A stretch of 64,000 nt of DNA from Ignavibacteriota bacterium (lineage in GTDB: Bacteria; Bacteroidota; Ignavibacteria; Palsa-1295): contig CAWBEI010000002.1 of assembly GCA_963787835.1 (NCBI GenBank), positions 320,001 through 384,000 on the forward strand. The letters are read 5' to 3'. The notes beneath the pieces were generated by a model. That model searched no databases, was not told where the DNA came from, and saw nothing but the letters and a program-made list of their open reading frames with translations. The first letter of the stretch is position 1. The number at the start of each line of letters is the position of its first letter. A program made the position numbers and the translations under genes. Of this stretch, positions 8,393-33,884 are shown piece after piece.

Positions 8393-8459
8393 CCAGGATC
8401 TCATAATAATTGTTGAATTTTGTGGCAGGTGTGAAATGTGTCGTATATTGGAGCATGAT

Positions 8460-8616
8460 ATTACAAGCACCTATTTCTCTGAGAACAAACATTGCATAAG
8501 TTCATGAAAGAAAGAGGTGAGTTCATTAAATGACAATTCAATTGAGAGTAATAGGCACCTTTGCTGAAAGAACAAATGGCGAATTCAGCACAGGAACGGC
8601 ACAGCTCATGAACTCC
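8460..8616 (+). repeat. Bipartite dispersed non-coding repeat (two related GCACCT...TTCAT units 87 bp apart), intact copy
   Basis: 8460-8540 matches the reverse complement of 32651-32731 at 75/81 nt; 8541-8616 resembles the reverse complement of 22213-22290. Confidence 0.85.
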
Positions 8617-22212: not shown

Positions 22213-22292
22213 TTCATTTAATGAACTGTGGCGTTTCCGAGCCAATTTCGCCAATATGTCTTTTAGAAATAGGTGCCCTTTAAACGCAATTG
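22213..22292 (-). repeat. Second half of the bipartite repeat, left flank of the island
   Basis: Reverse complement CAATTGCGTTTAAAGGGCACCTATTTCTAAAAG...CACAGTTCATTAAATG aligns with 8539-8612. Confidence 0.7.
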
Positions 22293-22348
22293 GGTACTGT
22301 CCTAATTAGACTTGGTTCCTAAAACGATATAGTTTTTGTTGTTAAGGC

Positions 22349-22693
22349 TTACATCCCAATGCTTCCCATAAGTTGACGCACGATGCTCTGAATTAAATTC
22401 GGAGTGACTTCATTGAGCGAAAACGGTTGACCGGCATCTTGTTCAACGATAATTTTACCTTTACGAATCGAGAGCGGGATCATCCTTGTGATAGTAGGAG
22501 ACTCCGAATAGCCGGAAAAATGAATACGAAAACATCTCTCTTCCAGCCCATTTTTAGTTTCGGTAATAGTCAAGCTGCACCGATCTGAGTCGTGGATTAT
22601 TTCTGCGACAATATCGGGGTTTTGTACTAACCTCATTTTAATAAGGTCGAAGGTTGGAAGCATTATCTGGTTCGCACATTCATCAAAGTTCAT
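22349..22693 (-). CDS. Hypothetical passenger protein
   Basis: 114-aa ORF with upstream GGAAT-N17-CGTT motif. Confidence 0.55.
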   Translation of the reverse strand: MNFDECANQIMLPTFDLIKMRLVQNPDIVAEIIHDSDRCSLTITETKNGLEERCFRIHFSGYSESPTITRMIPLSIRKGKIIVEQDAGQPFSLNEVTPNLIQSIVRQLMGSIGM

Positions 22694-22807
22694 ACTCTCG
22701 GAACGCCAGAGATTCGAGTGGCATTCCCATCCCCACGGGCAGGTTCGGTGCTTTCAGGTTTTCCGATTGAGGAAACGATACGAGGAATATTGCCGTAAGA
22801 AGAACTG

Positions 22808-23152
22808 ATGGATTATCGTGGTCAAGAAGCATATTATGATGAAAAAGGAACACTTCGCCGAAAAAGCGACGGCGTGAGGATTGTTCTCACTCTAAAAGAA
22901 AGAGAGCAATATAAAAAAGAAGGCTATCTTTCTAACGGCGTAGAGACCGAGCCTCTTAGAGAAGAAAAATTGCAACGTCAGGGTTGTATGCTTTTATTGC
23001 TGAAGGATAAGTCACTGAACGACAAAGAAACTGAGCGGCGCATCAGCGCATTCGCAAAACAACTTATTAGAGAGAACAAAGGCAATCCTGACTTCTGGGT
23101 CATTCGCGCCCCAGAGGACAATACACAACCCTCTCATTGGACGGTTTTATGA
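22808..23152 (+). CDS. Hypothetical passenger protein
   Basis: 114-aa ORF after GAAAC-N17-CGTA motif. Confidence 0.55.
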   Translation: MDYRGQEAYYDEKGTLRRKSDGVRIVLTLKEREQYKKEGYLSNGVETEPLREEKLQRQGCMLLLLKDKSLNDKETERRISAFAKQLIRENKGNPDFWVIRAPEDNTQPSHWTVL

Positions 23153-23373
23153 TCGTCGGATGGAGCGACATATTTGTCTAAAATCTTGGTAATCTCATCT
23201 TCTGCGGAGCATTCTAAGCAAATGGCATAGTAGGTAAGGGCGAACGACTCTTCGTTTTCATATTCTCCTTTAACCGATTTAACGACCTCAACGGTATGCT
23301 TATCGTTAGTTGTGCATTTCGTATTCGCAAATCGTTTTTTAATTTCAGGGGGAATGCGAGGGATTGTTTCCAT
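23134..23373 (-). CDS. Small hypothetical passenger protein (Cys/His, CxxC)
   Basis: 79-aa ORF co-directional with the IS1595 transposase. Confidence 0.45.
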   Translation of the reverse strand: METIPRIPPEIKKRFANTKCTTNDKHTVEVVKSVKGEYENEESFALTYYAICLECSAEDEITKILDKYVAPSDDHKTVQ

Positions 23374-23379
23374 ACAAAT

Positions 23380-23565
23380 TCAACATTCGCTGGAGTTAAA
23401 GCATTCTTCAGGATCGAGCGCGCTTATTCGAAGCCGCTTTGCTCCATCGTGGCTTTCTTGCATAATACTCCGCACGGCGCGCCCGAAGCTCTTCGGTTCT
23501 TCGGAGGTCGTGTTTGTGTTTGGCGCGGAGTTCATTGGAACGGGTTGATCGAGGAGTCTTTTCAT
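23380..23565 (-). CDS. Small ORF coupled to the IS1595 transposase
   Basis: ATGA overlap with the transposase stop. Confidence 0.4.
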   Translation of the reverse strand: MKRLLDQPVPMNSAPNTNTTSEEPKSFGRAVRSIMQESHDGAKRLRISALDPEECFNSSEC

Positions 23566-24482
23566 AAGGATGCTCCGGTCAATTCCTCATACGTCAGCCG
23601 TTTGCCGAAGAGCATCGTGGCCGCCTTGATGAATCTGCCGGAGTCATTGTCCTTTCTGTTATCGTACCGGAAACCCTGTTCGTCAAGGTAGCGGTCAAGA
23701 TGATAGGGTTCAACGTGGATGTACGTGCCTTTGAGGGCGCGCTTCACCAGCGACCAATAGTTCTCAATGGTATTCGAATGCGTGTTACCCTTGACGTATT
23801 CACCGCGTTTGTGATTGACAGTCGAGTGATCGTAAACGACACCGAGTGCCTTGTACGAATTCGCTTCGTCACTGTAAAGGGTTGAGCCGACCTTCACGGT
23901 TGCAAGCACTTGATTCTGAAGCGTCCGTGCGTGAGTGTTCTCAATGACGCGCGCCTGTACTTTGCCACCCCGTTCAACGGCCCCGAACACGATGGTCTTA
24001 CCATCGCTTCCGCCACGGGATTTTACTTTGTTCGCGTGACGATTGCGCTCGGCACCGCCGAAGTAACTTTCATCTATCTCGACAGAACCCGTAAGTTTTT
24101 CCCCCGCATCCTTGGCAATACTTTCTCGGATCCTATGCCCGACATGCCATGCGCTCTTTTGTGTAATTTCTAAGGCCCGTGCTATTTCGTAGGAGCTAAT
24201 TCCATTCTTACAATTAACGACCATCCACACCGCAGGAATCCATTTTGTAATGGGAATTGGCGAGTTGTGCATGACCGTCCCGGCCTTCAAGGAGAACTGC
24301 TTCTTGCAGTCCCGGCATTTGAAGGCCGGACGAGTACGCATTCCGTAGATTGCTGTGGAGCCGCACTTTATGCAGCATCGTTCACCGCCATGCCAATAAA
24401 GCTCCGACAGGAATTCGACGCATACCACTTCCGAGGAGTAGTAGCGTACCGCTTCGAGTAGGCTTTTGGGTGTTTTGAGCAT
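23562..24482 (-). CDS. IS1595-family (ISXO2-like) DDE transposase
   Basis: Zn ribbon CIKC...CRDC; VEIDESYFGG, YSDE, VNH, HSNTIENYWS..KR, YLDE..FRY, KRLTYEEL. Confidence 0.92.
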   Translation of the reverse strand: MLKTPKSLLEAVRYYSSEVVCVEFLSELYWHGGERCCIKCGSTAIYGMRTRPAFKCRDCKKQFSLKAGTVMHNSPIPITKWIPAVWMVVNCKNGISSYEIARALEITQKSAWHVGHRIRESIAKDAGEKLTGSVEIDESYFGGAERNRHANKVKSRGGSDGKTIVFGAVERGGKVQARVIENTHARTLQNQVLATVKVGSTLYSDEANSYKALGVVYDHSTVNHKRGEYVKGNTHSNTIENYWSLVKRALKGTYIHVEPYHLDRYLDEQGFRYDNRKDNDSGRFIKAATMLFGKRLTYEELTGASL

Positions 24483-24979
24483 GATCGTGAGTTATTAGGA
24501 ACGTTCCCGGTGGAAATTGGATTAAATAGAAATACCCGATCATTAATAATAATGATCGGGCAAGTTGTGGCCCAAGCCACACGATTAAATTGTGCCAGAA
24601 TTCGCGTTCTGGTAGTAGCATGATGAGTGCGCGGGGGCGTTCTCGTCATGTACCCGGAGTGTGATTACTCCGGGTTTTCTTTTTCCGAATGAAGAAGCGT
24701 GGTCGATGCGGCTCATACGGAAAGAAAATCACATAAAAAACCCCAAGATATTACCTGAAAAACTCGCTTGCTGGCGTTGAGTCCCGACCGAAGCCGGGTA
24801 GGTAAATCTTGGGGTCAAACCCAAAAAAGTTTCAGTTGTATCGCCAGCAAGACGATGTAGGCTTTCACCTGACTTGGTTGCTAACGTATCATTACACTGT
24901 TCGTTTCAGTTCGCATGAAAAAAGTGGAAACTCTGAAAGCGGATTTGGGTTTCCATCGTGGCCTTTGGAACTAAATGGG

Positions 24980-26506
24980 TTATTTAGTAATCGCCAGATT
25001 GATGTAGCTCACCATATCTCCCACCCTAACGCGGCATACATATTTTCCCGATGGGAGCGTCTCCGTGCCGAGCGAAATGGATTGTGGGCCTTCGTTTGAA
25101 TAACCGTTCATAACCTCCATTATTTGTTTTCCCAGGGGATCATAAATAGCAATCTGCGTAAAGCTGGATTCTACTGTTGTAAATTTCAAGGTCATTCCAC
25201 CGCTTGAAGGATTTGGGAAAACTTCGGGGTTAAACCAATCGGGCTGTTGAGGGGTGGAAACACCCAACGTCGTATCTGAATGAGTCGGGCAATAAAGTTT
25301 CGCGAACATGCAGGAATCATCGCTCCCAAGTCCGCGTGGAGCGATGTTAGGTTGCGCCTGCTTAGATCCCATCAACATCCAATATCCTGGTATGCTACTC
25401 TTACAATAATTATAGTTATTAACGCAGGTGTCTCCACGAACAATCGTATCTGGATGTAGTAACCCGAGCCAATGGCCGATCTCATGCTCGATTATTTCCT
25501 TAAAGCTGAAATCATAAAACCCTTGATTTGCCGCGCCGGGGTCTGGGGCAGGTCCCGTGTACCATCCCATCAATGGACTCTGGTGTAGCTTGTAACCAGG
25601 AATAGGCTGAAGGGCATCGTTTCCATTTTGGTAGAAGAAGCTATTTGTTGCATTGTAAGTAATAAACCGATAATTTGAGTTCGGACATGCGCCTCCATCG
25701 GGGCATCCCGGATGCCCATACGTCCATGCAACAGGATAGCCGGCTTTTTTCAATCCAGATGCTTGATAAGTTCCTTGAAAGTGAAGGATATTAGTGTCCG
25801 GAATTATGAGGATACAGCAGGTTGTGTCGCCAGTAAATCCGCAAATTCCAAGCCACGCATTTAGATCGGATTGAGCATCAGAACTTGCACCACCCGTGTT
25901 CCAAACCTGATCGTAATGCACATCTGAGCCGTTGGCGTATGATATAGAGTCACTTATGTAAGTGTTGTATCTTTCTATATCGATTTCAAAGATTGAGTAA
26001 TCTTCTCTATCGCAGTCATAAACCGATAATGCCTCTTCATATTCTTCGTCATAGTCATAATTATCACGATTAGGAGGAACATCTGGTTCATGTCCATCAT
26101 GCACTTGGTGGAAATCGGTATCCCATTCGTCTAACCCGGCATTATAGGTTCCGGTATCCAAGACCTCACCCGGATCGGGAATGCAGCCGGAGAAAACATC
26201 ATAAGTATCTGGTAACGAAACAGGTTCTGGCGGCTCTGGAACAGGATCGGTCGGTTGATCGAATACACTCGTGTCAGGTGGAATTACATTTACACAACCC
26301 GGTATTTTCGATTTGGAGGGTGTGTAGCTTGGTGGTGGGTCATTCGGGTTTGTCGAACATTGCACGCCTTGAGCACCTGTAACGAAACAAAATACGTAAG
26401 GGAAACTCTCATTCCCGCATGGAATAGGGCAATGTATCGCCTGTGCCAACCCAATAGACGAAACGAAAAGGGAAGCAGCGATTAGAAGAAGTGGAAAAGA
26501 CTTCAT
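24980..26506 (-). CDS. Secreted metzincin-type zinc metalloprotease with T9SS CTD
   Basis: Signal peptide; HEIGHWLGLLH (HExxHxxGxxH) with a downstream Met; CTD VFPNPSS...LPSGKYVCRV. Confidence 0.8.
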   Translation of the reverse strand: MKSFPLLLIAASLFVSSIGLAQAIHCPIPCGNESFPYVFCFVTGAQGVQCSTNPNDPPPSYTPSKSKIPGCVNVIPPDTSVFDQPTDPVPEPPEPVSLPDTYDVFSGCIPDPGEVLDTGTYNAGLDEWDTDFHQVHDGHEPDVPPNRDNYDYDEEYEEALSVYDCDREDYSIFEIDIERYNTYISDSISYANGSDVHYDQVWNTGGASSDAQSDLNAWLGICGFTGDTTCCILIIPDTNILHFQGTYQASGLKKAGYPVAWTYGHPGCPDGGACPNSNYRFITYNATNSFFYQNGNDALQPIPGYKLHQSPLMGWYTGPAPDPGAANQGFYDFSFKEIIEHEIGHWLGLLHPDTIVRGDTCVNNYNYCKSSIPGYWMLMGSKQAQPNIAPRGLGSDDSCMFAKLYCPTHSDTTLGVSTPQQPDWFNPEVFPNPSSGGMTLKFTTVESSFTQIAIYDPLGKQIMEVMNGYSNEGPQSISLGTETLPSGKYVCRVRVGDMVSYINLAITK

Positions 26507-26545
26507 TGTTTGCTCCTTGTGGTTTTGGGAAGTGAATATGAACGA

Positions 26546-27592
26546 TTATGGATGGAGAATATTATAGATTCTCGCGCGAAGTCTTGACTTCCAGACCGCA
26601 ACCGTTAGACCACCAGAAATGGAGGCACCAAGTCCGAAATCGTCGTTAGGATCAACCACATGACCGCTTACGACTCTATACATCGCTCCTTGATTTCCAA
26701 AGACACCCCAATAAGGTTGAATGCTGAAATAGCCATTGGCGGTATCAATTCCAATTCCTGCGATTCGAAGGAACACGATGTATTCTCCTCCCGGCCTGAT
26801 CCACCATCCGGTCGAATCAGACAAAGCAGGCGAAAAAGGCATTTCATCACCTGCAATTGCACTTGCCCATTCGGGTGAATATTCAAATTGAATACACGCA
26901 CCACTATCAGCGCGAACTGCATACGTTGGCCAAGTTGAAGCATAGCTCATGGTTGTAATCTCATTGGATTTCCGGTGAGTGTGCATGTCTTCGCCGATAC
27001 AGAGTGGAATTTTTTGTCCCTTGATTTCATCAAGGATTGTGGAATTAACCAATACTATGTGTGGGGTAATGTTATCTGACGAGTTATACTTGACGATGGT
27101 ATCCCCGATAGTCACGTCCGCGATAATATCGGAAGCAAGAATAAAACCTGTACGACCGGTATCGCCTATACCATTTCCAATTTGATTAGCTAATATTGGA
27201 ATTGAGTTACCAGGGTTACCTTTATAGTGCCAAGAATAATCTGGGTGCCCTCCAAGAGGCCATGAACTGATCTCCCATTGATATAATGATAACGGATTAT
27301 CGTCACTAACTTTGTAAAGCATCTCGGCAAGGAACGTCATCGTGTCATCGTGCCCAAGATTCCCGATCCATTTGTTGATCAAGTTCCATTGCGTTGAGCG
27401 CATAAGTTCATCGGCCCAAAGGTATGCGCTTGCCACGTCGGAAGGTTGACTATCATATAGTGGTGGGACGGTCGTGAGAAGTGGGAGGCTATACTTGATT
27501 AAACCTGGATAATTCGGCCCCGTTTGGCTTCTCACAGCAGGTGCGGCAAAAAAACCTGCCCAAAGAAAGAGGATGAACATGATTCGTTTCAT
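26546..27592 (-). CDS. Secreted hypothetical protein upstream of the protease
   Basis: Signal peptide MKRIMFILFLWAGFFAAPAVRS; 39-bp gap to the protease gene. Confidence 0.7.
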   Translation of the reverse strand: MKRIMFILFLWAGFFAAPAVRSQTGPNYPGLIKYSLPLLTTVPPLYDSQPSDVASAYLWADELMRSTQWNLINKWIGNLGHDDTMTFLAEMLYKVSDDNPLSLYQWEISSWPLGGHPDYSWHYKGNPGNSIPILANQIGNGIGDTGRTGFILASDIIADVTIGDTIVKYNSSDNITPHIVLVNSTILDEIKGQKIPLCIGEDMHTHRKSNEITTMSYASTWPTYAVRADSGACIQFEYSPEWASAIAGDEMPFSPALSDSTGWWIRPGGEYIVFLRIAGIGIDTANGYFSIQPYWGVFGNQGAMYRVVSGHVVDPNDDFGLGASISGGLTVAVWKSRLRARIYNILHP

Positions 27593-27937
27593 AAAAACCC
27601 TTCCAGAAATGAATATTTGAAGTATGAAATTCAACTAACAGCACAAAGATACAACACTTTTTCCATCAAGTTTTAGATTTGATTTTCCGAATTGCAGGAG
27701 AATAGTAGGGTATTTGCAGGTGCTTTTTTCAAATGAAATGGGCGTTATCGTGGCTCTTTTCAACGGTTCATCGTGCATGATCAATTATTATGGAGGTTCT
27801 TATGATAATCGTGTTGCGAAGCATATTTTGTAAGAAAGCAACGATGGAGTAAGGAGGATAGAATCGGTGTTCGAAAGAAAGTCCGATGCTCACATGCCAA
27901 TGAAAAGCAACGGACTTCACCTCAAACAAAAATCATA

Positions 27938-28144
27938 ATGCTGAATGTACCGAAAACACTACTAAAAGAATTCGACGATATTATGAAAGCAAGCAAATGT
28001 GGTAATGACCGCTCCCACGTTATTTACGGAGATATAAACTGGGTTGTACGCGATGCGGCTGGCCTAAATCGTTACGATTGGTATATTAGATGTAGCGAGA
28101 ATGGGTGTTCCTTCACGGATCATGGTACTATCTGGCGGCCTTGA
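27938..28144 (+). CDS. Small hypothetical passenger protein (Cys/His-rich)
   Basis: 68-aa ORF, overlaps the convergent ORF. Confidence 0.35.
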   Translation: MLNVPKTLLKEFDDIMKASKCGNDRSHVIYGDINWVVRDAAGLNRYDWYIRCSENGCSFTDHGTIWRP

Positions 28145-28366
28145 ATCGAGGGGTAAATGAACTTCATTCCATTCTTCATTGGTTTGAGGCATAACATCGA
28201 AAAGCGGATCGTCTTTGAATTTTTCAACAATGTACTCGATAAATTCTTGATCTTTTGGACATTGCAATACCGCACCCGTGTGATAAGGATTCCCTCGCTC
28301 GGTGAATCGTGTTTCCCTCAGACGAAAATAGATGGCAACGTATTCTTTTTGTTCATCAGAAATCAT
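28064..28366 (-). CDS. Hypothetical passenger protein
   Basis: Shares its 35-bp upstream element with 22808-23152. Confidence 0.5.
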   Translation of the reverse strand: MISDEQKEYVAIYFRLRETRFTERGNPYHTGAVLQCPKDQEFIEYIVEKFKDDPLFDVMPQTNEEWNEVHLPLDSRPPDSTMIREGTPILATSNIPIVTI

Positions 28367-28509
28367 AATTCTACTTAAGGTAACGCCGCTTGTATCGTTT
28401 CCTCAATCGGAAATCCTGAAAGCGGCGTAACTTTATTTGGAAACCTCTGGTTGATTCTAATATATTAGTGCCATTTGACTTAGTTCCTAAAACGATATAG
28501 TATTTGTTG

Positions 28510-28758
28510 TTAAGAGGTTTTCGCTTCAGCCATCACAAAAACTCGATGACGGTAATTACCTTGTTCGCCTTCTTGGAAAAGACAGTGATTAACGCGGGAG
28601 ATTATGTAGTCCATCTTGCTATGATTAAATTCTTCACCGACTGATGGAATGACCGGTGCATGGTTGAGTGGGTATTCGCACTCGAACTCATACATAATCT
28701 GACCGCCTTCACGGAGAACGTATTGCACGGCGTATGTTACGCTTTTGATTGAATCCAT
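28510..28758 (-). CDS. Hypothetical passenger protein
   Basis: 82-aa ORF with TGAAC-N17-CGTT motif and the same flanking modules as 22349-22693. Confidence 0.55.
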   Translation of the reverse strand: MDSIKSVTYAVQYVLREGGQIMYEFECEYPLNHAPVIPSVGEEFNHSKMDYIISRVNHCLFQEGEQGNYRHRVFVMAEAKTS

Positions 28759-28887
28759 TGTGTTGTTGTTTCCTTTCGACCCTCGGAACGCCTTAAATTC
28801 GTGGCTCGTTCATGTCTCCCGAATGCGTTATTATCATCGAATATGGCGTTGAGCCACACTCCTGAAATTATTCACAATTAAAACAAT

Positions 28888-29136
28888 ATGTCTATGCAAA
28901 TTAAATTCAACCTTACGGGCAAATCGAACGGCATTAAAACTTACGATGTAAAGAGCGGAGAGGCTACTCTTACCACCGCAAGAAGATTGCCGGGTGTAAC
29001 GGGCTATGAAATCATCAATCCCCAAAACAACGAAGCAAAACAGGGGTTGGCAGGGGAACTCTTACGTGAGTTCTTCCCAGACCTACGGGGCGCTGCTTTA
29101 GAGATTGAAGATCAGGACGGCATGGCCATTATGTAG
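28888..29136 (+). CDS. Hypothetical passenger protein
   Basis: 82-aa ORF followed by a terminator hairpin. Confidence 0.5.
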   Translation: MSMQIKFNLTGKSNGIKTYDVKSGEATLTTARRLPGVTGYEIINPQNNEAKQGLAGELLREFFPDLRGAALEIEDQDGMAIM

Positions 29137-29147
29137 GGATGTTCAGA

Positions 29148-29173
29148 GAAGGGCGGCCCAATGGCCGCCCTTC
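29148..29173. terminator. Hairpin terminator between convergent genes
   Basis: GAAGGGCGGCC-CAAT-GGCCGCCCTTC. Confidence 0.65.
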
Positions 29174-29175
29174 AT

Positions 29176-29809
29176 TTATTGTAACACAGTATCCCATCCC
29201 CACGCACTGTTCGCAATCCCTGCCATTTGAGCCGGAGTGCAACCGATCGAGGAATGAAAGCGCATGAAATTGTAATGATAGAAGTGAAGATTCACTGCGG
29301 CTCGTAGGTTATCGAGCTTCTTGCTCCAAGCGTTTGTCAGCCTTGTCAGTCGCCTCAACCCCATACGCATCGTGAGGTTTTGCCTCTCGATGTAGCTGGT
29401 GGAAATATCTTCTACCAGTGGTGCGCCGAATATGACTCGTAGCGTTACTCCGACCAGACGGGCGGGTGAGTAACGACGCTCCCCAATGTACGCCTCGGAA
29501 TACTTTTTGTGAACTTGTCCGTAATCAATGGCACTCTTTCCATAGACCTTGTAAATCGCACTCACATAAGCATTCCAGGCATCGGTGCTGAGTTGGTAGC
29601 GGGTTTCGATGCGATCTCGAAGCTGTTCGAGAAGCTTCATAGCACTCCACCCATCACGCTTGCCAACATAGAATGCTGGTACGAGCTTGCTATCTGCATC
29701 AATGGCAACGAAGGTGTAAGCGTCACCATATTCCGCTTTATCAGCTAACGGATCTACACGTTTCTGTTTCTTTCCCACGTATCCCCAGACTTCATCGAGC
29801 TGTATCCTT
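29176..29809 (-). pseudogene. 5'-truncated IS1-like DDE transposase
   Basis: IQLDEVWGYVGKK, STD, ISTSYIERQNLTMRM; homologous to 30285-31139 but the HTH N-terminus is replaced exactly at the TIR starting at 29810. Confidence 0.85.
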
Positions 29810-29860
29810 GGTAGTGGCTCAGTTTGGGAACTTTCGATATTTTTATACTGAATTATGTTT

Positions 29861-30058
29861 ATGAACACACAAAAGATCGAAGTCGGCGATATGGTGAAAT
29901 TGAAAAACGGCGCAACGGTATTAATGTCCGTTCACGAATTGAACGGACATGGGATAGAATGCGATTGGTTAGATAACGAGAATAGATCGCAAAGACAGAC
30001 CTTTGCACCTGCCCAACTTATCCGTTTAACCGATTCCCAAAATAGTCAACGAGAATGA
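29861..30058 (+). CDS. YodC/DUF2158-like small protein
   Basis: IEVGDMVKLKNGATVLMSV...IECDW...QTFAPAQL. Confidence 0.7.
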   Translation: MNTQKIEVGDMVKLKNGATVLMSVHELNGHGIECDWLDNENRSQRQTFAPAQLIRLTDSQNSQRE

Positions 30059-30212
30059 GTTGCTCCGTTATGAAGGCACCTTCTTGGAGTTCCCCGTTTT
30101 TGCTGAACCATTGGCAAATCCAATGATCTCCTGAGCCTTTGCGATTAACGCTCATTATTGGAGTGCCCTGAATGAATCCAAGATGGACTAAAGAGCCGGG
30201 TTTTATTTCCAT
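30018..30212 (-). CDS. Second YodC/DUF2158-like small protein
   Basis: IKPGSLVHL...GTPIMSV...WICQWF...EGAFITEQL. Confidence 0.65.
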   Translation of the reverse strand: MEIKPGSLVHLGFIQGTPIMSVNRKGSGDHWICQWFSKNGELQEGAFITEQLILVDYFGNRLNG

Positions 30213-30243
30213 GATTGTAATAGAATTATGGTTATGAAATAGA

Positions 30244-30271
30244 ACGGGCTGGGGTGAAGTCCCAGCCCGTT
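30244..30271 (-). terminator. Hairpin after the transposase
   Basis: AACGGGCTGGG-GTGAAGT-CCCAGCCCGTT. Confidence 0.6.
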
Positions 30272-30284
30272 TGCGTTAACACGC

Positions 30285-31139
30285 TTAGTCAACCGTCAAA
30301 TCCCGTGTGTCAAGCAGGTCAACCAAGTCACCAATACTCCAAAGGTGATTCGTGAGTCCCGCCTTCATTGCAGGGGTCATTCTAAGGGACTGGTGAACCC
30401 TCACGAAATTGTAGTGCATGAAGTGCAAAGCGATTGATGCGATATGATGCTCAACGCTTTTCGAGAACCCATTCGTGAGCCGGGTAAAACGGCGCATTGA
30501 CATTCTCATTGTGAGGTTTTGACGCTCAACGATTGATGTAGAAATGTGATCGGCATTCGGATTTCCGAACTTCGGCTGTTTCTCAATGCTAATAACTTCA
30601 CCGGGGCTGTATCGCACGTCTGGCGAGTTGCCAGCACCTTTGCCATATTTCTTTACAAGCATTGCATAATCTACACCGTTGACGCCGAACGACTCACGAA
30701 CGGCGGTAAAATAATTTGCATGTGCGTCCGTTGTCAACTGAACGCGGTTAGCGAGACGGCTCGCTACATCACTCATGAACATATAGGCGTACTCTCCGTC
30801 ACGCCGTCCTACGAGCCATGAAATGATTAATTTGGAATCTGTATCAATGGCAGTCCAAGTCCACTGGGAACCAACATTGCCGGAAGCTCTCTCACCGTCC
30901 GTGCAATTAGCGTCTTTCTTTCCTACGAAGCTCCAAATCTCATCGGCCTCAACACGTTGCGCCGTGACACCCTTAACATTCTCATCGTGGAACTTCTCAC
31001 ACGCCGCACCTAAGTCAAGAAGGAGCTTAGAAATGGTATTCCGCGACACGTCAACCATGCGCGAAATCGCACGGATGGAATTGCCCTCGACAAGTGCCGA
31101 TACGATCTGAATTTGTTTGTCTCTGTTTAGCTTGTTCAT
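30285..31139 (-). CDS. IS1-like single-ORF transposase (HTH + DDE, no Zn finger)
   Basis: LVEGNSIRAISRMVDVSRNTI (HTH); VEADEIWSFVGKK; LTTD; HISTSIVERQNLTMRMSMRRFTRLTNGFSK. Confidence 0.9.
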   Translation of the reverse strand: MNKLNRDKQIQIVSALVEGNSIRAISRMVDVSRNTISKLLLDLGAACEKFHDENVKGVTAQRVEADEIWSFVGKKDANCTDGERASGNVGSQWTWTAIDTDSKLIISWLVGRRDGEYAYMFMSDVASRLANRVQLTTDAHANYFTAVRESFGVNGVDYAMLVKKYGKGAGNSPDVRYSPGEVISIEKQPKFGNPNADHISTSIVERQNLTMRMSMRRFTRLTNGFSKSVEHHIASIALHFMHYNFVRVHQSLRMTPAMKAGLTNHLWSIGDLVDLLDTRDLTVD

Positions 31140-31215
31140 GATAACTTAAACGGGTTACCCTAAGCATAAGTTTCAGTTTGTTTATTATTCTTCAAACAAA
31201 ATAGCATTCGTTAAG

Positions 31216-31470
31216 AAACCCGCGCCGGAACAATCCCGGCGCGGGTATGGTTAGTATAACCACGAGAGAAGCCGCCCGCCCGCAAAAGCAAACGGCTCCC
31301 CCTCCGTAACGCAAAAGCGTTACGCCTTTCACGGTAATCGTAAAAAGGGTGCTGGTGAAGCCACTAAAGGCTCTAACCGATTCCACGAAGTAGAAAGCGA
31401 CAGGAATCAGGCCACCAGCAAAATCAATATTAGGGGCTAATTTCGCCGTAGGAAGCGATTTTAGCCCTTT
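31216..31470 (-). ncRNA. Candidate structured non-coding RNA inside the transposon
   Basis: Six consecutive stem-loops, e.g. CGTAACGC-AAAA-GCGTTACG and a GCTGGTG...CACCAGC multiloop, ending in a terminator-like CCCGCGCCGG/CCGGCGCGGG hairpin. Confidence 0.45.
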
Positions 31471-31926
31471 TTATTCATCTTGTTTCGCTAAATTCCATTC
31501 TTTTAACCAGATTAAGTCGCCCTGACGCACGATTCTATCATCTTGTCCAACGCCGATAGCGAAGTTTCGGAATTCAAAAGTCTTGTTTCCGCTTCCCTTA
31601 TAGCCGTTTTTAACGAGGTGGTCGTATGCTTTCCTGAGAGAGTATTTGGCTGTTTTCTGTATTTTTAATAGCGCATAGGTCGCATTCGATGCCGTCATGC
31701 CAGTATAGAGTCCGGGCGACGGTAGATCGCCCTCATCCTCTTCATTCTCGGAAGCATCCTGTTCATCTTCATTTTCATCCGAAATCTCAATAAATTGTAG
31801 GAGTTCATCCGCCACGCCGGGTTTTAAGAATGAGGCAAGCCGATCATTCTCTTCCTTCAAAATCTCAATTTTTCCATCATTTTCAGCGATTTTAGCCCTA
31901 ATTTTGCTCTCTGAAAAGGTTATCAT
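31471..31926 (-). CDS. Hypothetical passenger protein (coiled coil, acidic linker, possible winged-helix C-terminus)
   Basis: Start MITFSE (31926) or ATG 31992; KIEILKEENDRLASFL heptads; DENEDEQDASENEEDE linker. Confidence 0.6.
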   Translation of the reverse strand: MITFSESKIRAKIAENDGKIEILKEENDRLASFLKPGVADELLQFIEISDENEDEQDASENEEDEGDLPSPGLYTGMTASNATYALLKIQKTAKYSLRKAYDHLVKNGYKGSGNKTFEFRNFAIGVGQDDRIVRQGDLIWLKEWNLAKQDE

Positions 31927-31995
31927 GATTTTCTCTGAATTATTTTTTGATGTTCTCGGTTCTATGGTTGCTACAAAATGCAAAACAGCCATTAG

Positions 31996-32072
31996 TAGCG
32001 GGGCGGGGGATCGAACCCCGCTCCTCTGGATCGAAAGTCCAGTGACCTACTGCCAAGTTAGTCTATCCCGCT
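31996..32072 (-). tRNA. Atypical tRNA-Glu(UUC)-like gene
   Basis: Cloverleaf: acceptor AGCGGGA/CCCCGCT, D stem GACT/GGTC with GG in a 12-nt loop, anticodon arm CTGGA-CTTTCGA-TCCAG, T arm CGGGG-TTCGATC-CCCCG, discriminator A followed by CTA. Confidence 0.8.
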
Positions 32073-32332
32073 GTTGAACTTAAAGGAATTGACCGAGTAA
32101 GCCGCCAAGCTTTTACCCGGTCTTTTTCGTTTAAGTGCACCCAACTAACCTTAACGGGTTCGAAAAGATTCATTAGTTAAATGGAAATAATGTAGTTAAA
32201 ATTTTAACGCCTCATTTCAGCAACAACAACTCGAAGCGTAAGACGTAGCTCAATACAGTTTTCAGCGCGTCAGATAAGGACGGAATCGACCCGAACGCGC
32301 CTGTATGACAATGAATAATTCCCACCACAGAT

Positions 32333-32566
32333 TCAATCTGTTTTCTTCTTCCACCGGGCTTTAGCCGCTTTTTTAGCAATCTCAGACCGCTTCTCGGCAC
32401 TTAGACGGGTCGCCCGAAGCTTTCCGCCCTCAGAACCCTTTTTTACGAATACTTCGCGGGGAATGGCTGTTTCTTCCTCGGTAGGCTCTATTTGACCCGT
32501 TGCATATTGCATGATCTTAAAAGCGCGTTGGTTTGGGTCACGGGGTAGTTTTTTGGGTTTTATCAT
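32333..32566 (-). CDS. Small basic transposon-associated protein (PRDPNQ / GGKxRA..LS..RSEIAKKAA.ARW family)
   Basis: Motif I recognise beside this type of IS1-like transposase (often auto-annotated histone-H1-like or RNA-binding); first gene inside the right TIR. Confidence 0.75.
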   Translation of the reverse strand: MIKPKKLPRDPNQRAFKIMQYATGQIEPTEEETAIPREVFVKKGSEGGKLRATRLSAEKRSEIAKKAAKARWKKKTD

Positions 32567-32650
32567 AACCCCTTAACGTTGCTTAGGGGGTAAGCATTGC
32601 TATAAAAAGTATAAAACACGAAACAATGGTTCCGAAAATGAGCCACTACC

Positions 32651-32731
32651 TGAATTGTCATTTAATGAACTCACCTCTTTCTTTCATGAACTTATGCAAT
32701 ATTTGTTCTTCCAGAAATAGGTGCTCTTAAT
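32651..32731 (-). repeat. First half of the bipartite repeat, right flank of the island
   Basis: 75/81 identical to 8460-8540; the 50 nt next to the TIR are identical. Confidence 0.9.
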
Positions 32732-32789
32732 ACCACTCTCTAATATACGACACTTTTCCCAGACGCCACGAAATTCGAAATTTTCTTTG

Positions 32790-33047: not shown

Positions 33048-33201
33048 GTCATAAATCCCCGCACGGACTGCTCCGCTCCCATATCTTCCACCACCGCGCG
33101 TTTAAATGTGGTTCGTCCGAGTGTTAGGATTGCCCTGAGCCTGTCGAACGGGTCTGGGAACCTGGGGCGTTCGGTGCCGTTCTTGAGTCCTCCAGCCTCC
33201 C

Positions 33202-33884
33202 GCTCCGTAGGAGCGCAATATTTGTAGCCCCCGGTTTCAACCGGGGGTTGAGGAGGGCACAGGAATCATAAGCTCCGGAGGAGCGGCATATCACCCCAGC
33301 GCGGTAAAATCGAACAAGTATCGTTCATCGTATGGAATACCAAACGCTTCGAGCAGCGCAATATACTCCTCACGGAATGTATGCTTTTTATGATGCGCTT
33401 CCTGATTCTGAATGTACGCGATGACATGGTCTAATTGGGAACGCGAATAGGAGAATGCGCCAAAACCCTCCTGCCAACAAAAATGCCGCGTCATCCACGA
33501 CTGCTCGTTCAGCCAGAGCGTTGAACTCGCCTTGATGTGCTTGACAAGATCCGAGATCGATTGATCGGGCTTCAAGCCAACCAGAATGTGGATATGATCC
33601 GGCTCGTTTTCAATTGCAATGAGTTTATGTTTGTGATTTTGAATGATACCCGTAATGTATTTTTGAAGTTCCTCTTTATGCTCGCGTGGGATGAGGTTTT
33701 CACGACCTTTGACAGCAAAAACAAGATGAATATAAAGTTGTGTGTAGGTATTGGCCATTTGGGTGATATTACGCTCCTACGGAGCTAAGGGGTATTATTC
33801 GTGCTCCGCAACCCCCGATTAAAATCGGGGGCTACAAAGATTAGGCTCCTAATGGAGCCATGTAATATTCCGCTCCTGGAGCTT
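33202..33884 (-). mobile_element. Y1-transposase locus flanked by inverted REP-like palindromes (RAYT-like layout)
   Basis: Left GCTCCGTAGGAGC...GTAGCCCCCGGTTTCAACCGGGGG; right CCCCCGATTAAAATCGGGGGCTAC...GCTCCTAATGGAGC. Confidence 0.65.
33291..33758 (-). CDS. tnpA: IS200/IS605-family TnpA (Y1 HUH transposase)
   Basis: YIHLVFAVKGR, PDHIHIL (HUH), FCWQEGFGAFSYS, YIQNQ. Confidence 0.9.
   Translation of the reverse strand: MANTYTQLYIHLVFAVKGRENLIPREHKEELQKYITGIIQNHKHKLIAIENEPDHIHILVGLKPDQSISDLVKHIKASSTLWLNEQSWMTRHFCWQEGFGAFSYSRSQLDHVIAYIQNQEAHHKKHTFREEYIALLEAFGIPYDERYLFDFTALG

Follow-up and report, generated by a model that had tools for sequence, protein, structure and literature searches.

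Introduction

Passenger-carrying insertion sequences (ISs) of the IS1 family that encode the transposase in a single open reading frame (ORF) form what we take to be the ISMhu11 group, or transporter ISs. Terminal inverted repeats (TIRs) starting with GGnnnTG and target site duplications (TSDs) of 8-9 bp are presumably features of the IS1 family. The element reported in this work occupies positions 29810..32650 (2841 nt, TIR to TIR) of a 64,000-nt stretch from an Ignavibacteriota bacterium (contig CAWBEI010000002.1), which is referred to as the window, and both features are found for it, in its own TIRs and in the TSDs of its relatives. The closest described systems in target choice are the TnGBS integrative and conjugative elements, ISLre2, and ISKra4, which insert 15-17 bp upstream of -35 boxes and for which contact with RNA polymerase has been proposed, according to PMC3942029. 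Judged by its sequence, the window element behaves like a promoter-homing element of the TnGBS/ISLre2 type, falls within a divergent IS1 subgroup, and is not RNA-guided.

The window family shares with TnGBS, ISLre2 (p-MULT 3), and the ISKra4 group (p-MULT 4), as described there, a distance of 8 + 7 = 15 bp from the tip of the inverted repeat to the -35 box. It also shares with ISKra4 the insertion in both orientations when the inverted repeats are near-symmetric. Those elements are Mutator-like, whereas the window family is IS1-type and no Mutator family is found among the Pfam hits of the window transposase to E 0.05; because the transposases are unrelated, the promoter habit likely arose independently. 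The geometry is found family-wide, and the window's own site does not lie at 15-17 bp from a -35 box. Literature searches, which did not extend to subscription papers such as the defining ISfinder reviews, turned up neither promoter-spaced insertion nor tRNA cargo for IS1-type elements, and the accessible parts of PMC9208149 and PMC7986276 contain nothing on IS1 targeting.

We consider it probable that the element is a single-ORF IS1-type transporter IS with a fixed core and variable cargo, that its family often inserts with the 8-bp TSD ending 7 nt upstream of a sigma70 -35 box, likely through docking on RNA polymerase, and that the tRNA and the hairpins are likely passengers. Promoter homing is known only from Mutator-like elements in the literature found, and an IS1-type enzyme of 284 aa that keeps to this 15-bp geometry would offer a compact system for the proposed polymerase contact and possibly a tool for non-disruptive integration or promoter mapping. 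In addition, the element family gives irregular tRNAs, which may mistranslate, a defined mobile carrier.

Target sites of the family

The homologues were collected as the best 80 each from GTDB genomes, metagenomes, and viral contigs, together with 31 regions from the order and class of the host. Both TIRs were identified for 192 loci. An exact 8-bp TSD is found in 59 of 64 TIR-bounded elements (the window element is among the 64) and in 78 of 108 elements of a second set. The rule by which ends were paired favoured TSD matches, and a TSD was required for the mapped insertions of the host's genus and family.

The word TTGAC located 7 nt past the TSD was first seen by eye in the discovery set and then counted. 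Of the 120 flanks (60 elements), 11 have it at outward offset 7, and no other of 60 offsets has it more than twice. The held-out sets were fetched afterwards, and 28 of their 108 bounded elements were dropped (no TSD or duplicate). TTGAC is found at offset 7 in 13 cases in the metagenome set (38 elements; at most one elsewhere) and in seven cases in the viral set (42 elements; at most two elsewhere). The pooled set consists of 136 elements with four loci of the host's family left out, and it has TTGAC at offset 7 in 31 of 272 flanks. The -10-like word TAnnnT peaks at offsets 30 and 31 (26 + 15), that is, with a 17-18 nt spacer. When the flanks were scored with a sigma70 weight matrix (threshold at least 6), 44 of the 136 elements pass at offset 7 and at most five pass at other offsets (four and five at offsets 6 and 8). 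TTG alone is found at offset 7 in 61 of 136.

Flanks with a poor -35 still exhibit -10 boxes in excess, with 17 against 3.7 expected (200 flanks) and 11 against 2.7 expected (161 flanks). The signal is one-sided, with TTG on both sides of two elements against 7.2 expected (p = 0.007); the promoter side is seen in either orientation of the element, and the spacing is seen across several phyla. Canonical IS1 differs from the window family in this respect, with the promoter peak at 0 of 26 distinct sites (Fisher's test, 44/136 against 0/26, p = 0.0002). The target is non-random, as the earlier note had indicated.

The spacing is also present in elements without detected tRNAs. It is likewise seen in 15 elements that belong to the host's class but to other families, where TTG occurs at offset 7 in nine of 30 flanks and TAnnnT at offset 30 in eight. 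Because the signal is kept although 14 of these 15 elements lack the small basic gene of the family, the transposase is implicated, and the basic protein was rejected as a targeting adaptor. The spacing likely arises because the transposase docks on promoter-bound RNA polymerase, and insertion just upstream of promoters may spare host genes as a safe harbour. Sigma region 4 or the C-terminal domain of the alpha subunit lies at -35 to -50 of a promoter, and contact with one of these is somewhat favoured over direct readout of the DNA. Elements inserted just upstream of the promoters of host tRNA genes were observed at three loci (L013, L042, and L089).

Insertion site of the window element

The 32650 end adjoins the centre of a repeat, as the earlier note had seen. 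About 19 copies of this repeat are present in the genome, intact or nearly so. The right half of the struck copy lies at 32651..32750; its first 8 nt are the would-be TSD, and TGAACT follows 7 nt later. The left half lies 10.4 kb away at 22259..22292. It is followed by the surviving TIR of a second element type (GGTACTGTCCTAATTAGA, 22293..22310, plus strand), which forms the left boundary of a 10.4-kb composite and is of the same type as TIRs in L097 and L262. At the other end, the 5'-truncated transposase gene of a second IS1-type element (29176..29809, minus strand, 42% identical) is severed at the TIR, which points to an adjacent deletion. A short-read contig, possibly from the source sample, bridges the 29810 junction with 0 differences.

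The transposon is complete internally, as had been claimed, but this copy has no TSD and its 29810 end cuts the second transposase gene. A 2-bp TG duplication around the composite was considered and rejected once the family TSD had been established as 8 bp, and the two composite ends therefore stem from two insertions 6 nt apart. In the simplest history, the window element would have entered a repeat copy beside an older element, 6 nt from the insertion point of the latter, and an adjacent deletion would then have started from the 29810 end. A TSD is also missing around 39 of 67 canonical IS1 copies. The element is present as a single copy in the host genome, and the cmk-recA interval holds different genes in two congeners. 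The relative at L093 is inserted at the identical nucleotide of a different repeat copy, orthologous to an empty copy in the window genome, with an intact 8-bp TSD.

A divergently oriented gene lies on the left side of the repeat in 14 of 19 copies. TGAA[C/G], a motif defined after the sites had been seen, is found at offset 7 in five of six mapped insertions of the host genus (five of ten in the host's family), and these offset-7 words in the genus have no -10 in register. The primary sigma factor of the host is a 287-aa protein, which we take to be of the Bacteroidota type. The upstream regions of the host show enrichment of TAnnTTTG (158 against 77 antisense) and none of TTGACA (32 against 27). 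In this host, with its Bacteroidota-type sigma factor and weak -35, the same 7-nt register falls on TGAAC in the intergenic repeat. The repeat was also considered as a dif site or as a sigma54 or extracytoplasmic function (ECF) promoter; compared by eye with consensus sequences, no XerD arm, -12, or -10 fits, and TGAAC agrees with ECF -35 boxes in register only. The repeat (for example window 8415-8566) carries GGTGC boxes together with palindromes of the TTCATGAA type at a spacing of about 21 bp, and it has been struck repeatedly by family elements within the genus.

tRNAs and hairpins

The window element carries an irregular tRNA-Glu(TTC) at 31995..32072 (minus strand), called by ARAGORN and matched at 47.4 bits by RF00005, whose gathering score is 29. 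Its D-stem is identical to that of the host tRNA-Glu. Its irregularities are A1:U72, an A7/C66 mismatch, a 12-nt D-loop, and G37, and the cloverleaf has a short arm with a 5-nt variable loop and is roughly 7/5 (or 6/6) with the mismatch. The host already encodes tRNA-Glu(TTC) and (CTC), so the tRNA of the element is redundant.

ARAGORN and the tRNA covariance model detected tRNAs within 17 of the 192 bounded elements and in five loci without both ends; tRNA-like RNAs hence recur in the family, as had been suggested. The tRNA lies at most 500 nt upstream of the transposase, in one slot immediately upstream of its promoter, in 15 of 22 tRNA-bearing relatives, and the window tRNA lies farther upstream, at -933. 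The nearest relatives (L092, L093, L012/L095, L094, and L259) have no tRNA inside. On a FastTree of 262 transposases, with four class-level tRNA cases that were found later left unlabelled, the trait requires 17 changes for 18 labelled tips against a shuffled mean of 17.5, and tRNA carriage as a clade trait was rejected. This scatter and the absence in the nearest relatives indicate that the RNAs are not core machinery. The earlier note had listed homologous elements without the RNAs first among the observations that would refute its idea of an RNA-equipped transposon. Homologous elements largely do lack the RNAs; tRNAs are nonetheless carried by a minority, mostly in one slot.

With the anticodon masked, the best-matching host tRNA body disagrees with the anticodon in 21 of 21 in-element tRNAs against three of 20 flanking controls. 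This test, from which four in-element tRNAs without a clear anticodon were left out, is crude and does not tell a mismatch from divergence when the score is low. The window tRNA is such a low scorer (best 69.5, Met), though its Glu-type D-stem agrees with its anticodon. The clear mismatches are Leu bodies with UCC or UUA, Ser bodies with UAU, and short-arm Arg-like bodies with GCU/ACU. PMC5389517 describes irregular tRNAs near toxin-antitoxin and transposon genes, of which some arrest growth on induction and several are inactive in translation. The tRNAs of the window family share with the allo-tRNAs and irregular polycistrons described there the disagreement of body and anticodon, the Ser bodies with UAU, the tandem arrays, and the closeness to transposon and toxin-antitoxin genes. 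The window tRNA differs from the allo-tRNAs of that description in its short arm, which is not 8/4 or 9/3 with a long variable arm. The family tRNAs also differ in having been mapped inside elements bounded by TIRs and TSDs, and the Figure S6 loci of that paper may overlap these elements.

Tandem arrays of two to three irregular tRNAs, some without a D-arm, were observed directly upstream of the transposase in L044 (4766-4919), L110 (482-629), L179 (4726-4889), and L181 (4628-4877). L190 (4776-4858) has an ochre-suppressor-like tRNA with a Leu body, and L284 and L287 have the Ser-body tRNAs with the UAU anticodon inside their elements. The cargo proteins beside other tRNAs exhibit no detectable homology to the cargo protein beside the window tRNA.

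The multi-hairpin tract at 31218..31467 (minus strand) is element-specific and fills the slot where other family members hold tRNAs. The region 31140-31470 folds with z = -6.7 (0 of 100 shuffles equally stable) and surpasses in stability all other members of a set of 67 equivalent regions, which were folded with 12 shuffles each out of 172 available. A z of -3 or lower is found at the equivalent slot in 11 of 66 relatives against two of 66 inside the transposase. The tract and the hairpin-bearing non-coding spacer that precedes the tRNA (32073..32332, minus strand) have no homologue in 87 loci, except that the last 75 nt, of the promoter, are common to L093. Neither of the two is found in 34 further genomes of the host's order, apart from one 31-nt match at the promoter end. 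One exact 21-mer of the tract has no match in the viral contigs, and no Rfam family matches over the tract. No non-coding RNA is conserved across the relatives, and no guide matching the target, as an RNA-guided transposon would have, is found. The tract is likely a terminator or insulator, and the tRNA and hairpins would ride as swappable passengers outside the jumping machinery.

The absence of a guide-like match thus stands as first noted, and the suggestion that the RNA-rich layout is a conserved regulating or targeting system is not borne out. Non-coding DNA makes up 872 of 2841 nt (31%) of the element; this share is high but not unique, since five of 63 relatives reach at least 29% under the same rough ORF rule, with a median of 15%. 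A 15-nt direct repeat between hairpin 1 and the cargo ORF was considered as an antisense switch and rejected because repeats at least that long occur in 10 of 172 elements.

Alternative explanations

Several observations weigh against RNA polymerase docking with passenger RNAs. Only about one third to one half of the sites are promoter-like by score or by TTG at offset 7, and of 103 empty sites that were reconstructed, 31 fall within long open frames; the targeting is therefore a bias and not a rule. A gene start lies on the promoter side in 24 of 31 cases against 17 of 31 on the other side (p = 0.11, not significant). Five of the 17 poor -35 flanks that have a -10 box have TTG at offset 7, 8, or 9. 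The window's own site has neither TTGAC nor a -10 in register, and three letters of its TGAAC (T, A, and C) are those of TTGAC, as direct readout would equally have it. The sites of the genus are explained by direct readout as well as by a host landmark that has shifted, and this is the main weakness of the docking model. The single slot used by most tRNA-bearing relatives suggests selection on the tRNA instead of neutral carriage. The transposase may instead read T-x-x-A-C (best TTGAC) directly at 7 nt from the cut, with promoters hit for the word and without contact with RNA polymerase. The TGAA[C/G] words without a -10 in the genus are consistent with this, as are 41 of 272 flanks that have T..AC at offset 7. 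We regard it as rather unlikely, given that the -10 enrichment persists where the -35 is poor, that the signal is one-sided despite near-symmetric TIRs, and that at L275 a TATTTTG box stands at offset 30 without a -35. It is extremely unlikely that insertion is random and that purifying selection leaves only the copies upstream of promoters. All sites are natural survivors and 72 of 103 are not inside a long frame, as such selection would have it, but the peak is one base wide, and canonical IS1 in prophage contigs has 0 of 26 sites at the peak against 10 of 42 for the family in viral contigs (p = 0.01).

The RNAs invite two further explanations. The idea of the earlier note, an RNA-equipped transposon in which the hairpins, the tRNA-like RNA, and the basic protein would act jointly to guide or regulate transposition, is very improbable. 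The stability of the tract, its place in the tRNA slot of relatives, and the stable folds of some relatives at that slot speak for it, and it is opposed by a tract without a sequence homologue or Rfam family, by nearest relatives that hit the same repeat position without a tRNA, and by targeting that is independent of the basic gene. The irregular tRNAs may also be a selected, host-facing module, which would add to the docking explanation and not replace it. They would act as suppressors (missense or nonsense) whose induction causes mistranslation, with growth arrest or abortive infection, or as nuclease-resistant spares, held in check by the adjacent HTH cargo. The masked-anticodon result, the preferred slot, and the growth arrest on induction in PMC5389517 argue for this module. 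Its rarity in the family, the low scores that may be mere divergence (as for the window tRNA), and the translation-inactive tRNAs of the same source argue against it, and we hold it as a tentative possibility. A wider proposal appears unlikely: a cross-phylum clade would home on promoter-bound RNA polymerase, retune in hosts with Bacteroidota-type sigma factors, and spread recoded mistranslating tRNAs (Ser-to-Arg, Gly-to-Leu, Ile-to-Ser, and ochre-to-Leu) as inducible toxin or anti-phage cargo.

Transposase and organisation of the element

All the parts listed in the earlier note (TIRs, tRNA, ORFs, hairpins, and two DUF2158 genes) are present, and its assignment of the element to the passenger-carrying IS1 type holds. 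The intact single-ORF transposase (30285..31139, minus strand, 284 aa) has a helix-turn-helix (HTH) and a DDE domain. It matches PF03400 with 36.7 bits against a cut-off of 24.1 and has N-terminal HTH matches. D66, D138, and E205 are invariant across 16 homologues, and structural comparison gives an RNase H-like DDE fold; the structural matches to ISCth4 are limited to some 160 residues within the catalytic core. The best NCBIfam hit is the IS1 equivalog NF033558 with 67 bits, below its cut-off of 100, and the transposase is therefore placed in a divergent IS1 subgroup. The family shares with the ISMhu11 group the PF03400 match, the HTH and DDE domains, TIRs beginning GGnnnTG, the 8-bp TSD, a transposase flanked on either side by passengers, and adjacent deletion. 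It differs from the group and from the IS1 family in the score below the NCBIfam cut-off, in lacking the canonical InsA/InsAB' layout with its frameshift and the N-terminal zinc finger (the single ORF begins with the HTH and has two Cys in total), in its core small basic gene, and in the irregular tRNAs of about 9% of members.

The fixed core of the family, as read from the sequences, is the TIRs, the small basic gene, the transposase, and the 8-bp TSD, and the other cargo is variable. The median element length is about 3.0 kb. The basic gene is present in 59 of 64 and 103 of 108 elements, and 146 of 194 cargo ORFs are singletons. Cargo clusters resemble HigA/HigB, P63C, SocA-like, methyltransferase, and coiled-coil/HTH proteins.

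The TIR pair of the window element is 22 nt long with 91% complementarity; the basic-gene end (32629..32650, minus strand) begins GGTAGTGGCTCA, and the transposase-distal end lies at 29810..29831 (plus strand). The small basic helical protein (32333..32566, minus strand, 77 aa) gave no clear match in a fold search (best Z 4.2). An operator-like palindrome lies 5' of its gene (32580..32596), and the promoter region of the transposase holds a related half-site (31153..31169, minus strand), so that related copies stand 5' of both genes. An ATGCTT-N-AAGCAT-type palindrome over the transposase promoter is found in 51 of 172 elements of the basic type, in 0 of 21 of the group mostly without the basic gene, and in 0 of 172 control windows. 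The basic protein is likely an autorepressor that would repress both element promoters through the shared palindrome. Its C-terminal helical motif also opens larger P63C-like cargo proteins (L018, L025, L052, L053, L064, L071, and L090).

The near-orphan cargo protein (31471..31992, minus strand, 173 aa, or 151 aa if called from 31926) has a coiled coil and likely a winged HTH. It has one full-length relative (39%), and HARE-HTH was matched on 38% of one cluster of its look-alikes. A terminator-like hairpin lies 3' of the transposase (30243..30271, minus strand). Two DUF2158 cargo genes, which both pass the PF09926 cut-off, are convergent (30018..30212 on the minus strand and 29855..30058 on the plus strand) with a 41-nt overlap of their 3' ends.

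Neighbouring features

The second IS1-type element remnant (window 22293-29809) encloses an IS1595-family transposase (23562-24482), a metallopeptidase-like gene sorted by the type IX secretion system (24980-26506), a 64-nt inverted repeat (22741-22804/28369-28432), and a 42-nt direct repeat (22305/28473). A Y1/IS200-like transposase (window 33200-33760), similar to those associated with repetitive extragenic palindromic (REP) sequences, adjoins recA and is flanked by REP-like hairpins, which match Acido-Lenti-1 just under the gathering score. The elements at L059 and L283 abut the TIR of another element end to end. Tandem heptamer repeats of the TTCATAC/TTCTTAA type are located directly upstream of many tRNA genes in the host genome.

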